Shown: in pieces, positions 34,939 to 43,586 of the stretch
Numbering within the stretch: the first letter of the stretch is position 1
Layout of the letters: each line of letters begins with the position of its first letter
Virus record (IMG/VR): IMGVR_UViG_2565956708_000007
Source: a virus
Taxonomy: Duplodnaviria; Heunggongvirae; Uroviricota; Caudoviricetes
Direction: 5' to 3' (one strand)
Length of the DNA: 64,000 bases
The notes under the pieces: generated by a model
What the model saw: the letters and a program-made list of their open reading frames with translations, nothing else
What the model was told of the DNA's origin: nothing
The model's database searches: none
Made by a program: the position numbers and the translations under genes

Positions 34939-35289
34939 ATGCACAATAACGTTCTCAATGTTAGCCGTTCAATTCAGACAATCAGAGACTGCACCAGTGT
35001 GGTGGCATCAATCCCATTGCGAAACAGCATAGACGAACTGCAAATTCGTGTATTGAATCCGAATCAGGCTAATAAGCAATTGCGCTTTATTTTGACGCTG
35101 AAAAGTGAAACAGAGGGGATAAAGCACAGCGTAAAAGTGTTTTCTGAGGCCATTCTGCTTAATGGGAAGCTCCGGCATCTGGTAAGGCCAGAACGTCAAT
35201 ATCCTGACGTCCTGGCGCGTGAAAAAGACCTTCTTTCTGAAGTTCAGGATAGGGTGATCGATTTCGTCAAATGCTATCCCCTGCATTGA
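34939..35289 (+). CDS. Hypothetical protein
   Basis: 116 aa, only plus-strand ORF in this block. Confidence 0.3.
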   Translation: MHNNVLNVSRSIQTIRDCTSVVASIPLRNSIDELQIRVLNPNQANKQLRFILTLKSETEGIKHSVKVFSEAILLNGKLRHLVRPERQYPDVLAREKDLLSEVQDRVIDFVKCYPLH

Positions 35290-35558
35290 GGGCAGGTGTT
35301 CCCTTCCGCAAAGTAGGGAAAATTGCTATCAAGTTCATCACACCATCTGCGATGGTCGTAGCACCAAAACGCCTCCCACGGTGCACGGAAATACTTCATC
35401 CACCAGGACACTCGATCAGGTATATCTGCTGGTGGCAGTTCTTCTGGCAATAATTTGCCTGATAATTCCCTTTCCGCCCGCGACAGCATTTTTTTGAGGC
35501 TCGCGTTCTCTTTTTCAAGCTCATCTACGCGCACCTGTAATTCAGCTTTCGTTGGCAT
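35274..35558 (-). CDS. Hypothetical coiled-coil protein with C-terminal CPQCRG zinc-ribbon-like end
   Basis: Internal start MPTKAEL; displayed sequence and track disagree by 1 nt here, coordinates approximate. Confidence 0.35.
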   Translation of the reverse strand: MPTKAELQVRVDELEKENASLKKMLSRAERELSGKLLPEELPPADIPDRVSWWMKYFRAPWEAFWCYDHRRWCDELDSNFPYFAEGNTCPQCRG

Positions 35559-36222
35559 GGTCCACCTCATGCTTTTCAGCCACCAGCGGCAATAAAGCCC
35601 TGGCCATCTTATGAACCAATAGTGCATCAATAATGCCAAGCGTATGCCCCGGCTTAATGTTTAATGCCGCCTCAAGGCGACACCTTTCCAGGCCACTTTT
35701 CTCGGCTTGTTTATGATGATCTGGTGTAATAACGTCGCCCAAAACACGGCTAATTCTTTCTCGTAATTGCTGGGTGCCAGCACACTTGATCGCTGTATCG
35801 TGGAGACGGTTAACCAGTTCGCGATAAACATGCGGCTTAATTCGGATACGTTCACCGGTGACGCCCTTTCCTGGTGCTGGCACCGAACTATCCGGAATAT
35901 CCGGATAGTTGCCAGCCTCGTAAGCTACCCGCAGCCAGTGCATGAATGTTTCAGTGGACACACAACCACAGTCCACATCGATTTTTCCGCGTTGCTGTTC
36001 CAGCCACTGCTCAAAATTCAATCTACACGTATTACTTTCATGTTGCTCTTTTTGTCTCAAGGCCAGCACCTGTTGGGCCAGTTCCAGAACGATACCGGGT
36101 GACGCTAACCTCTCAAATTCCAATAAATAGTTTGCGTCAGGATGACAAGTAGCCTCGCCTGCAAAAAATACCAATTGCTGTAAGTATGCTGTCGTTAGAG
36201 TAGTCATTTCTTTTTGCGCCAT
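35542..36222 (-). CDS. Hypothetical protein
   Basis: 226 aa ORF in a tightly packed operon. Confidence 0.45.
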   Translation of the reverse strand: MAQKEMTTLTTAYLQQLVFFAGEATCHPDANYLLEFERLASPGIVLELAQQVLALRQKEQHESNTCRLNFEQWLEQQRGKIDVDCGCVSTETFMHWLRVAYEAGNYPDIPDSSVPAPGKGVTGERIRIKPHVYRELVNRLHDTAIKCAGTQQLRERISRVLGDVITPDHHKQAEKSGLERCRLEAALNIKPGHTLGIIDALLVHKMARALLPLVAEKHEVDHANES

Positions 36223-36578
36223 TTCTTTTCACATTCCTTAGTCCATTTTTCAATGTTCATTTTGGCAATATCAGTCATTCCATCACCTAAGAAATACTTT
36301 TTCCGGTACGTCTTGCACTTAAACCACACTACAACAGCCACCAGCCAGAAAATAAAAGGCCATACGGCAATACCAACTCCAGCCGCGATAAAGCCCAATA
36401 TCCATAAATGAAGCTCTCCAACTTCTGTTTCCGGCAATATTCTTAAAGAATTAAACAGCAGGCTGAACGAATGGTCGTATGCATTGGCAGTATAAGACAT
36501 GCAATCCATATAATTAAAGTCATAGCCTGCGGCTGCCGCCCATAATGGGCGGTCAAGAAAATGTTTTAGTGTCATCAT
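36204..36578 (-). CDS. Hypothetical membrane protein
   Basis: 124 aa with hydrophobic core and Lys-rich tail. Confidence 0.4.
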   Translation of the reverse strand: MMTLKHFLDRPLWAAAAGYDFNYMDCMSYTANAYDHSFSLLFNSLRILPETEVGELHLWILGFIAAGVGIAVWPFIFWLVAVVVWFKCKTYRKKYFLGDGMTDIAKMNIEKWTKECEKKWRKKK

Positions 36579-36584
36579 ATTAAT

Positions 36585-41141: not shown

Positions 41142-41461
41142 GCTGATTCCCCTTTCTCTGCTCTCTCCTGTCGGAACATCACTATCATCAGGTCGCCTTT
41201 TGTCGCTATCCTGGCTGTTGTACCTGGTTCAATGCGGCTAAGCTCAAATGCGTCATAGAACGCTTCTAATGCCTTCTGGCGTAGTTCCTGTTTGCGCCGT
41301 TTTTTCCACTGTTTTAGGAAAATGGAACCCAGCCATCGCCATGTGCGGGACATGATGTAAAGCCAACCGAGAAGTGCCAGACCGGTATTTAGGAGCGTAT
41401 CGATCGTTATTGTCGTGTCGATATTCACTGGCTGCTTCCTTTGCGAATCTGTTCCGCCCAT
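41138..41461 (-). CDS. Small membrane protein
   Basis: 107 aa ORF, hydrophobic N-terminus. Confidence 0.3.
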   Translation of the reverse strand: MGGTDSQRKQPVNIDTTITIDTLLNTGLALLGWLYIMSRTWRWLGSIFLKQWKKRRKQELRQKALEAFYDAFELSRIEPGTTARIATKGDLMIVMFRQERAEKGESA

Positions 41462-42129
41462 TCTTCAAGGGATTTCTCCGCATATTCACCAGACAGGCCA
41501 TCAATCGGATGCGCTTCATTAGCCAACTCTTCTTTCGCTGACAAAATCATGCGTGTAACGTCGAAAACTTCACGCAAAGACTTATTGATAAATCCGTGAT
41601 TGAACGCAGCAGCAAGACGGCTGGCGGTATAGTTAATCCCCTCGTTGCGTGCTTCCGCACGAATTTCAGCCAGAAAAGCATCGGTAGCTGGAGTTTCGCT
41701 GTGGTGCAGGGCATCGTTGATAATCATTGCAGCAACTCCGGCCTGCCCTGCATCCGTGACCGACACATGCTCAAGAGTTACGGCCATTGCGTGTTTCAGC
41801 CCGGCGTTCTCTGCCACCAGCGCCGCGAGCTTAGTCTCAAGCGGTGCTATTCGGCACATAGCATCAATATTTGTGTCCTCCAGGCGCTTAATTTCACCAA
41901 GTAGCTCCAGTGCAACCTTTGGGTTGAATGCGGCAACATAACGAGCGTTGTTCTCTGCGTTTTTCAGCCCATCAAAGCCGGTCCATTTGATAACATCTTC
42001 ACATCGTTTATCACCGGGCGTATGCACAGCATACGTACCTGTACCCGTCGAAATAAACGCGACCCATTCGCCCTGTGTTGCCTGTTTTGCTATCTCACGT
42101 AGTGCCTGATAGTTAATTTTGGTTGTCAT
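41425..42129 (-). CDS. Ea22-like protein (paralog 3 of 3)
   Basis: N-terminal INYQALREIAKQA, C-terminal ATDAFLAEIRA...EEWAEQIRKGSSQ. Confidence 0.45.
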   Translation of the reverse strand: MTTKINYQALREIAKQATQGEWVAFISTGTGTYAVHTPGDKRCEDVIKWTGFDGLKNAENNARYVAAFNPKVALELLGEIKRLEDTNIDAMCRIAPLETKLAALVAENAGLKHAMAVTLEHVSVTDAGQAGVAAMIINDALHHSETPATDAFLAEIRAEARNEGINYTASRLAAAFNHGFINKSLREVFDVTRMILSAKEELANEAHPIDGLSGEYAEKSLEEWAEQIRKGSSQ

Positions 42130-43004
42130 GCCACCACCTCTTCGAATTTCAACTCCAATTGATCACCCCAGATTTCACATGACTCTGAACACGAGCCGGT
42201 ATCGAATCGCCTGGTTTGCACCATCGCCTGATACAAATTTCTGTAGTCGCTGTCGGCATACATTCTGGCAATCCCGTCAAGGCTCAGATGACCACGGTAC
42301 ATAACGTCTTTATTTGTCTTTCGGTGACCATCCCGGACGTGTTTACCTGTAACCAGTTCATTAAAAACCCGCATCAGACCAGGTTCGTCTTTACATGCAA
42401 GCCCCAGCTTTTGCGTTGACTTTTTGATGCAAAAAACACAGTTCCCTAGGTGCTCCGGGATTTGCAAATCAAAAGGTTGTTTTCGCCACCACCGGATAAC
42501 ATCCGACTTATCAAGATCTGACAGCTCTGCAAGATACCGGACGCCCAGTTTCGGTTTCAGCCTGCGGTGTTCGTCCGCACGAATACCCAGCCATGTGATG
42601 TAATTCCCTCGCCCAAAATGGTCATCGCAATATTTCGTGAAAGGGGTGAGTTTTAGCCTGTCAGTACAGAACGCGCCGCCGATGTATGGCGTACCGTACT
42701 TTTTAACCATGTCCATAAACGGTTTAAGCACCGGCATTCGCGTCTGAATATCCTTTGGTTCCCATTCCGTATAACCATTTGGCTGCCCAAGTTCTGGATT
42801 TATATCGACCTGCAACACCGTTAGCGGTACGTTCCAGAACTTCACAACCTCACGAATAAAGCGATACGTCAGAGGATGTTCACAGCCGGTATCCATAAAA
42901 ATGAAATGGACGCTAGCGCCAGCTTTTCGCTTTGCTTCCATCAGATGAACGAGATAAGCCGATGTTCGTCCACCTGAAAAGCTGACAACTTGATGCATAC
43001 TCAC
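42126..43004 (-). CDS. PAPS-reductase-like PP-loop ATP pyrophosphatase family protein
   Basis: N-terminal SFSGGRTS PP-loop, C-terminal Cys cluster GSCSESCEIWG. Confidence 0.6.
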   Translation of the reverse strand: MSMHQVVSFSGGRTSAYLVHLMEAKRKAGASVHFIFMDTGCEHPLTYRFIREVVKFWNVPLTVLQVDINPELGQPNGYTEWEPKDIQTRMPVLKPFMDMVKKYGTPYIGGAFCTDRLKLTPFTKYCDDHFGRGNYITWLGIRADEHRRLKPKLGVRYLAELSDLDKSDVIRWWRKQPFDLQIPEHLGNCVFCIKKSTQKLGLACKDEPGLMRVFNELVTGKHVRDGHRKTNKDVMYRGHLSLDGIARMYADSDYRNLYQAMVQTRRFDTGSCSESCEIWGDQLELKFEEVVA

Positions 43005-43007
43005 GGT

Positions 43008-43586
43008 TTATTCCTGAATGCGCTTAAACTCGATTACCCATACCCACGGGTTAGATAGCCAGTTCTCTTGCCCGTAAATACCGCGCCAGATATCACCGAA
43101 ACCAACGCGATAAACAGCTTCCGGCGGTGTAATCTTGTACGTCGCCGGAGATGCGCCTTCCGCTTTAGCATCTGCCTCGCTCATGTCATGCAGCCGTTCC
43201 ACACGCACGTCGGTAATTTCCAGCAAAATACGCGAAGCCCAGCGCGGCATGTGAATTGATGGCGTCCACTTTTCTGATACTGGTTTATTACAAACCTCGA
43301 CCGGAACCCGGTGCGTTTGTTCTGTCCAGGAGTTACGCACGCTTGCGCGATAAACCAGCGTTGCGACGTCCGTCGCTTTGCCATGTACCCGGTAGGTTTC
43401 GCGAACCCAAATACGATCGCCCGGTTGACCATATGGACAATGCTTAGCAAGCAACTCTACGGCCACAGCCCGTCCATAGAATTTTTCTTCAACAATCCTG
43501 CGAGTCTGTGTTTTATTCCCACCAAGAATTGCCCGGACCATCTCATCGTTGAAAATCATGCCGCGCTCTTTCACTTCGTCTTTCAT
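43008..43586 (-). CDS. ASCH/PUA-like domain protein, first gene of the C1-operator-controlled accessory operon
   Basis: MIFNDEMVRAILGGNKTQTRR ... GDRIWVRETY pattern. Confidence 0.45.
   Translation of the reverse strand: MKDEVKERGMIFNDEMVRAILGGNKTQTRRIVEEKFYGRAVAVELLAKHCPYGQPGDRIWVRETYRVHGKATDVATLVYRASVRNSWTEQTHRVPVEVCNKPVSEKWTPSIHMPRWASRILLEITDVRVERLHDMSEADAKAEGASPATYKITPPEAVYRVGFGDIWRGIYGQENWLSNPWVWVIEFKRIQE

Follow-up and report, generated by a model that had tools for sequence, protein, structure and literature searches.

An 18-gene long-cargo form of variable region 8 in a P1-family phage-plasmid, read as a probable C1-controlled early unit with accessory genes exchanged with lambdoid phages

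The viral DNA stretch IMGVR_UViG_2565956708_000007 (Duplodnaviria; Heunggongvirae; Uroviricota; Caudoviricetes), of which 64,000 nucleotides (nt) were analysed as one window, is assigned to a P1-family (Punavirus) phage-plasmid and carries, from 43586 down to 35274, an array of 18 genes on the minus strand. The locus has been described before as variable region 8 of P1-like phage-plasmids, which extends from pmgT to humD, and is present here in an unusually long form; in JL22, pmgT is replaced by a gene cluster in this region (PMC9603915), and the annotation of P7 calls the locus the 'hea operon'. The array was interpreted as the early unit of the P1 family that is controlled from the operator OpmgT/Op88, loaded with a long cargo of accessory genes exchanged with lambdoid phages, and a probability of about 0.78 is given to this interpretation as a whole. 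What is new is the allelic composition of a known hypervariable early operon, assembled from known, widespread families and ordinary for this phage family.

Supports of the interpretation include the operator, the conserved position and the packing of the genes. The operator ATTGCTCTAATAAATCT lies at 43765-43781 on the minus strand, about 180 bp upstream of the first gene, differs at one position from the C1 consensus ATTGCTCTAATAAATTT and is identical at 17 of 17 positions to OpmgT (formerly Op88) of P1, where the site overlaps the pap stop codon in the same way. The near-consensus C1 operator that an earlier note, made from the letters of this DNA alone, had placed at the head of the genes was therefore found as described. 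Across the window 13 operator-like sites were counted and 0.34 were expected by chance, so the operator observation is far beyond chance; in the P7 record the corresponding site carries the annotation "Op(hea); predicted to regulate expression of hea operon". The array shares with the OpmgT/Op88 unit of P1 (hea in P7) the position between pap and hot/humD, the operator, a leader, a first gene of the PmgT/Upf86.8 family, the strand and the dense packing, and its flanks, with pap and pmgS on one side and hot, humD and phd-doc on the other, match the synteny of P1-like elements. It differs from the P1 unit in its cargo, which amounts to 8.3 kb and 18 genes, lacks pmgV and upfM/N/O and is unmatched as a combination in the searched records. 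For comparison a set of 84 loci was used, consisting of 80 P1-like loci collected from IMG/VR with Pap as bait together with those of P1, P7, RCS47 and a chromosomal P1-like element. The features of the locus are given below (strand in brackets; aa, amino acids; ORF, open reading frame; SD, Shine-Dalgarno motif), with the genes of the array numbered g1 to g18 in the direction of reading.

43781-44287 (minus): pap (3'-phosphatase), the conserved upstream neighbour, 92-98% identical in the 84 P1-like loci; its stop abuts or overlaps the operator.
43765-43781 (minus): C1 operator, the OpmgT (ex-Op88) of P1 and equivalent of Op(hea) of P7, as described above.
43737-43780 (minus): predicted sigma-70 promoter region at P1-equivalent positions, mapped from the P1 annotation; overlaps or abuts the operator.
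43710-43732 (strand not assigned): G+C-rich hairpin of 10 bp, terminator-like on the plus strand only, the T-run being on that side.
43596-43682 (minus): hydrophobic leader ORF of 28 codons (MNTAFKIIMAAIYFWLFSITFGGIVAHG) with an AGGAG SD; its stop lies 9 nt before the ATG of g1, within the SD of g1.
43008-43586 (minus): g1, 192 aa, PmgT family with predicted ASCH (PUA-like) fold, an allele of P7 Upf86.8 (phrog_874; alignment to P1 PmgT; AlphaFold2 model; Foldseek).
42126-43004 (minus): g2, 290-292 aa, PP-loop ATP pyrophosphatase of the PAPS-reductase/SspD/DndC type (Pfam, PADLOC, PHROG).
41425-42129 (minus): g3, 234 aa, Ead/Ea22 N-terminal part and coiled-coil fused to an EaE/Oad2-like C-terminal half (Pfam Ead_Ea22).
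41138-41461 (minus): g4, DUF4752 protein; the likely true start is a GTG at 41428, which gives a GTGA overlap with g3.
40407-41141 (minus): g5, 244 aa, EaE/Oad2-like, without the Ead_Ea22 domain (phrog_368).
39778-40410 (minus): g6, 210 aa, Ead/Ea22 family (Pfam; partial match to P22 EaD).
39567-39776 (minus): g7, 69 aa, four cysteines (phrog_926).
39208-39570 (minus): g8, 120 aa, acidic, paralogous to the N-terminal part of g12 and at its own N-terminus 88% identical to P22 EaA.
39032-39208 (minus): g9, 58 aa, very basic (phrog_13831).
38847-39035 (minus): g10, 62 aa, basic, two cysteines (phrog_1380; 99% nt identity to an Stx2c phage).
38330-38845 (minus): g11, 171 aa, putative nuclease, PD-(D/E)xK-like with an MmcB/Cas4-type core (invariant motif and weak profile matches).
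37440-38333 (minus): g12, 297 aa, EaA-like with a C-terminal DUF551 domain (Pfam; comparison with P22).
37183-37443 (minus): g13, 86 aa, 'eaa' protein (phrog_2814; annotations in related records).
36902-37204 (minus): g14, 93-100 aa, small ASCH-like protein (phrog_625); the likely start is an ATG at 37183, which gives a TAATG overlap.
36585-36878 (minus): g15, 97 aa, no function assigned (phrog_1258).
36204-36578 (minus): g16, 124 aa, predicted to be a membrane protein; hydrophobic segment around aa 68-86 (phrog_2638).
35542-36222 (minus): g17, 226 aa, residues 86-214 related to the P1 DNA of the PmgT C-terminal extension/PmgU (83% identity).
35274-35558 (minus): g18, 94 aa, coiled-coil and four cysteines, last gene of the array, named 'antitoxin PHD' by NCBI.
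34939-35289 (plus): convergent ORF of 116 aa between the array and hot (phrog_2594; also annotated in RCS47 and CP093011); shares 16 nt with the 3' end of g18.
34655-34906 (minus): hot (DNA polymerase III theta homolog; NCBIfam 1.2e-30), the conserved downstream landmark of the slot.

The region from the operator to g1 contains several conserved features. Hexamers equivalent to those of the P1 promoter P2pmgT lie at 43775-43780 (-35) and 43752-43757 (-10), and those equivalent to P1pmgT at 43760-43765 (-35) and 43737-43742 (-10); both pairs are predicted and conserved from P1. The leader ORF is 94-100% conserved in about 81-82 of the 84 loci, reference P1 included, is not annotated in P1 and is called a hypothetical protein in a few records. 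At loci with replaced cargo the similarity stops directly after its stop codon. When the leader ORF was subjected to a test for coding selection, its DNA was near-invariant and the 3' end of the alignment was contaminated by divergent junctions; its coding status is that of a candidate. Taken as a whole, the leader does not fold better than its shuffled versions (z = -1.1), and Rfam at permissive thresholds returned only chance-level matches. Among 60 unique leader sequences the hairpin at 43710-43732 is the least variable segment, and it would stop transcription heading towards pap. Neither the leader ORF nor this hairpin nor the convergent plus-strand ORF at 34939-35289 had appeared in the earlier note.

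The array itself consists of 18 intact ORFs, all on the minus strand, and spans 8313 nt, of which 99.5% are coding (coding fraction and span computed with the most likely start codons). Stop/start overlaps are present at 12 of the 17 junctions, mostly of the form ATGA, GTGA or TAATG and in some cases longer, and the other five junctions are gaps of 1, 1, 6, 9 and 23 nt, so that the junctions range from -37 to +23 nt. SDs are embedded in the final codons of the preceding gene and create C-terminal tails such as ...KGE, ...RKGGNQ and ...PQEAK ahead of the stop codon. The block of roughly 18 tightly packed minus-strand genes claimed in the earlier note is in this respect borne out. The G+C content of the array (48.2%) is the same as that of the whole window. 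Pairwise ratios of non-synonymous to synonymous polymorphism (pN/pS) were between 0.07 and 0.44 in 14 of 15 testable genes, with 0.07 for g7 and for g11, and these are therefore functional genes. One discrepancy concerns g10 and g11, which are separate ORFs here, in different frames and 1 base apart, and are spanned as one protein (window 38330-39035) by the 230 positions of phrog_9263; either the two genes are fused in some phages or a frameshift was mis-annotated. Repeats inside the array occur between the paralogs g8 and g12 and between g3 and g5.

Signals that could divide the array are scarce. Seven promoter-like sites were found within it, fewer than the 13.0 +/- 4.1 in shuffled sequences; two weak minus-strand sites were noted at 37819 and 36116. 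The scan for terminators gave no convincing minus-strand terminator inside the array, and the Lpa-type late-promoter motif, of which six copies occur elsewhere in the window, is missing from it. Few promoter-like sites, no terminator, no late motif and no intergenic space are consistent with, and no proof of, a single C1-repressed early unit. The published RNA sequencing study of P1vir makes no mention of these genes.

Alignment to the P1 reference, a check that the earlier note had named beforehand, showed that the region is not collinear with P1. Nucleotide matches are limited to four segments, namely 43495-44300 (pap, operator, leader and the first about 90 nt of g1), a short piece of g1, 35577-35923 and hot, and canonical P1 accordingly shares only the operator, the leader, pmgT (g1), pmgU (3' part of g17) and hot with this locus. 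For pmgV and upfM/N/O no counterpart was found within the window. The identity between g1 and P1 PmgT is 44% over residues 1-182. In most other P1-like elements the PmgT alleles have 192-246 aa and end in ...NPWVWVIEF(E/K)RIQ. The P1 protein (locus L003 of the set, NC_005856, 6489-7558) departs from all other alleles after '...NPWV' and enters DNA like the middle of g17; this P1 DNA (7118-7525 of L003), to which residues 86-214 of g17 correspond, carries two annotations, PmgU and the unusual C-terminal extension of the 309-aa PmgT. As P1 PmgT runs into g17-like DNA, reference P1 seems to derive by deletion from a longer cargo operon, whereby pmgT would have come to abut the 3' part of a g17-like gene.

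Variation of the slot over the comparison set is large. While pap is present in 84 of 84 loci, single cargo genes (at least 90% nt identity) were found in just 6 to 39 of them, and the distance from pap to hot ranges from 2289 to 10177 nt (about 8.9 kb here, about 2.3 kb in P1). P7, RCS47, SJ46 and JL22 carry cargo that partly overlaps that of this array. The whole array was absent from all searched phage, plasmid and E. coli records, the best coverage being 90% (chromosomal P1-like element), 86% (plasmid) and 48% (phage RCS47), and every protein that was looked up has an exact copy in public databases, nearly always as 'hypothetical protein'. The record with 90% coverage (NZ_CP093011.1, 4414099-4430296; L004) is labelled as an E. 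coli chromosome and is either an integrated P1-like element or an assembly artefact.

A type I restriction-modification (R-M) system of the EcoR124 type (HsdR, HsdS and HsdM by Pfam) occupies the slot in the opposite orientation in 15 of the 55 loci that have at least 9 kb of downstream sequence (L032 at 10772-16786, L024, L025, L034, L037, L040, L046, L049, L051-L053, L059, L064, L071 and L076). Both hot and humD are missing from most of these loci and are kept in L076. This occupancy fits a remark in the P1 record that the R124/3 and EcoDXXI plasmids have, downstream of hsdR, sequence matching the DNA of the Op88 leader. Where R-M genes fill the slot, the C1 operator and the leader point into the 3' end of hsdR, and antisense control is a possibility. 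The hairpin of the leader would sit just beyond the end of the convergent hsdR in these relatives.

Much of the cargo has close relatives in lambdoid phages. Nucleotide identity to Stx-converting phages and Oslovirus is about 90% for the PP-loop gene, whose counterpart belongs to the Oslovirus exo-xis region, 97% for 40121-40628, 99% for 38194-39036, 94% for 37600-38864 and 95% for 36912-37479. Those phages have the genes between exo/bet/gam and xis/int, with order and orientation unchanged, in the part of the early-left operon known as the exo-xis or 'ea' region. Matches to the segments in complete E. coli genomes were located at 8518 chromosomal and 1319 plasmid places. In the comparison with P22, g3 corresponds to EaE, g6 to EaD and both g8 and g12 to EaA. 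The lambdoid exo-xis region (lambda, P22 eaA-eaI, Stx phages, Oslovirus) shares with the array the PAPS-reductase-like, Ead/Ea22, EaE, EaA/DUF551, eaa, small ASCH and 171-aa nuclease-like families, as well as the tight packing and an early, repressor-controlled expression, which for the array presumes control by C1. The two settings differ in that the lambdoid region belongs to the pL transcript between recombination genes and xis/int, under the control of CI and N, whereas the genes studied here follow a C1 operator of P1, a leader specific to P1 and a gene of the pmgT family. Near the array there are neither exo/bet/gam nor int or xis, and its flanks are P1-like genes.

How cassettes may have been exchanged is suggested by the junctions. 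The 18-nt linker AAAGGAGAGTGATATGGC is present at the junctions g6/g7 (39762-39779) and g10/g11 (38831-38848), where it encodes ...KGE, the stop codon, one base and ATG-G. It was found 52 times in the collected loci, joining at least three upstream with at least three downstream gene types in varied combinations, and the junctions before g2, g6, g10 and g13 likewise connect multiple upstream or downstream classes. From this distribution AAAGGAGAGTGATATGGC appears to act as a cassette-shuffling point, and the paralog repeats (g8/g12 and g3/g5) supply further homology for exchange. Linker-mediated modular exchange is classical for lambdoid phages; here it would operate across phage types.

The following mode of operation is proposed. 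In the plasmid-prophage state C1 bound to the operator would keep the unit off, and upon infection or induction the unit would be read as one long early mRNA, along which the stop/start overlaps and the SDs in the last codons of the previous gene would couple translation. The end of pap, the C1 operator over the predicted promoters, the hairpin, the leader ORF and the 5' end of the pmgT-family gene would form a conserved platform. Behind it would follow a hypervariable slot, occupied here by 17 further small genes, many of them from the lambdoid exo-xis ('ea') pool, with the stop/SD/start linkers as recombination points at which P1-like elements exchange cassettes with one another or with lambdoid prophages. 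The encoded proteins would be dispensable and accessory, acting on the host or on competing elements. In a more speculative extension, which we hold only tentatively, the platform would be a docking and expression site for conflict genes that trades cassettes with lambdoid exo-xis regions and holds alternately a counter-defence set, with Oad2-like OLD inhibitors, an SspD-like PP-loop enzyme and ASCH readers among its members, or a type IC R-M system. The leader ORF with its hairpin might then act as a gate to the cargo, through translational coupling to pmgT and a block on convergent transcription.

The PmgT family of g1 comprises 43,393 clusters at 50% identity. An AlphaFold2 model of g1 calculated from an alignment of 57 sequences reached a predicted local distance difference test score (pLDDT) of 90.3; a single-sequence AlphaFold model (pLDDT 41) was discarded. 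With Foldseek the model matched E. coli YqfB (E 1.8e-4), PH0355, the Lactobacillus ASCH domain 3S9X, EF3133 and ZmASCH in the PDB as well as viral ASCH proteins, and its superposition on YqfB gave a template modelling score (TM-score, normalised to the target) of 0.75 at a probability of 1.0. The ASCH/PUA-like beta-barrel fold of g1 is thus confirmed at the level of the predicted model. With known ASCH proteins (the N4-acetylcytidine amidohydrolase YqfB, ZmASCH, PH0355) g1 shares the fold and the N-terminal strand-helix motif 'GxKTQTRR', and it differs from YqfB-type proteins in being about 90 aa longer, through insertions and a C-terminal helical extension, and in a sequence identity of about 14%. 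Matches to Pfam ASCH (PF04266) were sub-threshold for g1 (16.1 bits) and g14 (13.8 bits, E 0.096) against a gathering threshold of 21.2 bits, and 9 of the 57 PmgT-family representatives matched it at E<=0.01. Two ASCH/PUA-like proteins had been claimed in the earlier note; g1 qualifies by its predicted fold, and g14 can be called ASCH-like only by the weak Pfam match and its NCBI name. Sequence searches of the PDB with g1, g2, g11 and g14 gave nothing significant, nor did a profile of 10 g1 alleles.

The PP-loop enzyme was recovered clearly in g2, which matches Pfam PAPS_reduct (PF01507) with 36.3 bits against a cut-off of 22.5 bits over its N-terminal 66 residues only, contains the SGGxxS motif as 'SFSGGRTS' and matches PADLOC SspD (4.5e-14) and PAPS-reductase PHROG families (1e-91). 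NCBIfam gave no assignments save weak PP-loop matches for g2 and the one for hot. No paper in the searched literature ties phage PAPS-reductase-like genes to anti-defence. In g11 the residues E37, D40, E53 and K55, which form an E...D...ExK motif, are invariant in seven homologs at 33-53% identity, and in a profile comparison the core of the motif aligned with 3DNX, an MmcB-like structure (E 0.004), and with Cas4 4IC1 (E 0.19). The PD-(D/E)xK nuclease of the earlier note thus keeps its motif and weak profile support, with no match above threshold in Pfam, NCBIfam or PADLOC, and g11 is described as a putative PD-(D/E)xK-like nuclease. Homologs of g11 in the virulent Vibrio phage PVA3 (L091) and in Salmonella phage Det7 (L093, Kuttervirus) lie directly upstream of a DNA primase gene; in PVA3 the homolog is in addition preceded by a helicase gene. 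Such a gene context hints at a role related to replication or DNA ends.

Among the remaining proteins, the DUF551 protein that had been noted is g12, and the small Cys-rich and membrane-like proteins were also seen, the former as g7 and g18, with four cysteines each, and the latter as g16, with a clear hydrophobic segment, and g4, with a weaker one. Some names carried over from databases were not upheld. The name 'antitoxin PHD' (NCBI/UniRef) of g18 has no Pfam or NCBIfam match at E<=0.01 behind it, only two sub-threshold coiled-coil Pfam hits, and is probably a propagated misnomer; a real phd-doc pair is located at 33468-34075. The RefSeq labels 'DNA primase' and 'minor tail protein' given to the locus in P7 were not supported by domains in the homologs examined.

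Of the three Ea22-like paralogs that had been claimed, g3 and g6 carry the domain (Pfam Ead_Ea22, PF13935; 8e-25 and 7e-38, respectively). No Ead_Ea22 match was obtained for g5 in the Pfam search, and this protein is EaE/Oad2-like instead. In its C-terminal half g3 has 38% identity with P22 EaE (E 1e-24) and 35% with gp27/Oad2 of HK446 (E 4e-11); g5 shows 28% identity to gp27/Oad2 over 170 aa to the C-terminus (E 5e-7) and 28% to the C-terminal half of g3. Common to g3, g5 and the Oad2/EaE proteins are the motif ETPATDAFLAEVRAQ and the C-terminal QLRKGG(NQ). HK446 gp27 was identified as Oad2, which directly inhibits the abortive-infection tRNase OLD of P2, is related to EaE and is sometimes fused to EaD/Ea22 (10.64898/2026.07.10.737580). 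The likeness thus extends to the coiled-coil, the shared motifs and, in the Ea22-EaE fusion of g3, an architecture mentioned in that preprint; the difference lies in identities of only 28-38% and in the fact that an OLD-related phenotype is known for no P1-like element. On this resemblance g3 and g5 may inhibit OLD-type defence.

Several observations weigh against the interpretation of the array as an OpmgT-controlled accessory unit. Both promoters at the operator are predicted only, and neither was picked up by a simple promoter scan. For the slot of P1 itself, the annotation predicts sigma-70 promoters ahead of upfM and of upfN, so internal starts are conceivable here as well. At the far end of the unit, the plus-strand ORF converges on and overlaps g18 ahead of hot. 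For g9, pN/pS was about 1 across 11 comparisons, unlike its neighbours, which amounts to no purifying selection; g9 is the weakest gene call and may not encode a protein under selection. Most genes of the array are without assignable biochemical function, the similarity of g3 and g5 to Oad2 is only 28-35%, and a 54%-identical homolog of Oad2 reportedly does not inhibit OLD, the inhibition being allele-specific (10.64898/2026.07.10.737580).

With regard to function, there are good grounds for describing the genes as early and accessory, with an action on the host or on rival elements. The genes pmgT, pmgU, pmgV, upfN, upfO and hot are nonessential for lytic growth of P1, as determined by CRISPR interference (CRISPRi) and deletion (PMC10695390); with this, and with no Lpa-type motif inside the array, the earlier view of the genes as accessory and not structural holds. 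The same note had gone further and suggested a host-takeover or anti-defence arsenal, and in its strong form this would make the array a dedicated anti-defence island, most of whose genes inhibit or evade host immunity (R-M, Dnd/Ssp, OLD, retrons and others) and are fired on entry. Such an island is conceivable though doubtful. It would account for the homology of g3 and g5 to P22 EaE and to a validated OLD inhibitor, for the EcoR124-type R-M system found in 15 of 55 slots, by which the slot qualifies as a hotspot of conflict genes, and for genes that are small, fast-shuffling, dispensable and early; an SspD/DndC-like PP-loop enzyme together with ASCH folds of the 'modified-base reader' kind would fit conflicts over nucleic-acid modification, and the lambdoid recombination-proximal region has been proposed as an anti-defence hotspot (10.64898/2026.07.10.737580). 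Against it, no match to a validated anti-defence protein was obtained for 16 of the 18 genes, the defence library of PADLOC gave only the SspD-like match of g2 among the array proteins, and the activity of Oad2 is reportedly highly allele-specific. What stands of the suggestion are the Oad2/EaE homologs and the R-M occupancy; apart from g3, g5 and the SspD-like g2 no gene was matched to a known anti-defence or defence family, and an anti-defence role is a reasonable sub-hypothesis that probably applies to some of the genes and not to all.

An equally tentative alternative takes the products as modulators of lysis-lysogeny and host physiology that tune induction, lysogenization and host survival, as for the exo-xis regions of lambda and Phi24B. 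Ea22 has been called pro-lysogenic, and effects on lysogenization and induction have been attributed to the exo-xis region (PMC7093339, PMC3824215, PMC10789677); a structure of Ea22 has been published (PMC10834534); two Ead/Ea22-domain genes are contained in the array, and its DNA is nearly identical to Stx-phage exo-xis DNA. However, the lambda genes orf60a, orf61, orf63 and ea8.5, to which the clearest phenotypes are attributed there, were not recognised among the 18 proteins in family searches, which involved no direct comparison with the lambda sequences. The C-terminal domains of the Ea22 proteins found here are also unlike that of lambda, and P1 is maintained as a plasmid with a different decision circuit (C1/Coi/Ant).

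It is rather unlikely that the array is not one operon at all and represents a patchwork of independently promoted morons, some of them expressed in the lysogen, that merely share a strand. The internal promoters predicted in the P1 annotation of the slot, the different sources of the cassettes and the two weak minus-strand sites at 37819 and 36116 would agree with it. The gaps of at most 23 nt and the 12 overlapping junctions leave no room for regulatory regions, promoter-like sites stay below the shuffled level, a convincing internal minus-strand terminator is missing, and the lambdoid counterparts sit within the long pL transcript, all of which speaks against such a patchwork. A morphogenetic role in virion assembly, as implied by the 'pmg' names, by the label 'putative morphogenetic function' of PmgT, PmgU and PmgV in P1 and by the name 'morphogenetic protein' of homologs in UniRef and RCS47, was rejected as highly improbable on account of the nonessentiality of pmgT, pmgU and pmgV (CRISPRi and deletion; PMC10695390), and the genes are moreover absent or replaced in many P1-like elements, including by an R-M system, show ASCH, PP-loop and nuclease-like, i.e. 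non-structural, folds and belong to families that reside in non-structural early regions of lambdoid phages.

Taken as an OpmgT/Op88-controlled accessory unit, the locus does not overturn current understanding. It adds an unannotated leader ORF and a hairpin, the ASCH fold predicted for PmgT, the view of P1 as a deletion form, linker exchange with lambdoid exo-xis regions, alternative occupancy by R-M genes and homologs of Oad2/EaE. Phage-plasmids of the P1 type occur commonly in E. coli, Salmonella and Klebsiella and contribute to the spread of resistance genes, and their variable regions represent adaptation to hosts and rivals. The locus illustrates one early accessory gene pool that would be common to a phage-plasmid and lambdoid prophages and swapped at gene-boundary linkers. 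With P1 being tractable and the operon dispensable, it offers a test bed in which the poorly understood exo-xis/'ea' genes, including the Oad2-like ones, could be challenged with defence panels.

Upstream of the locus, a strong terminator-like hairpin with an 11-bp stem and a T-run was observed on the minus strand at 44312-44341, between pmgS and pap, which raises the question of which promoter serves pap.

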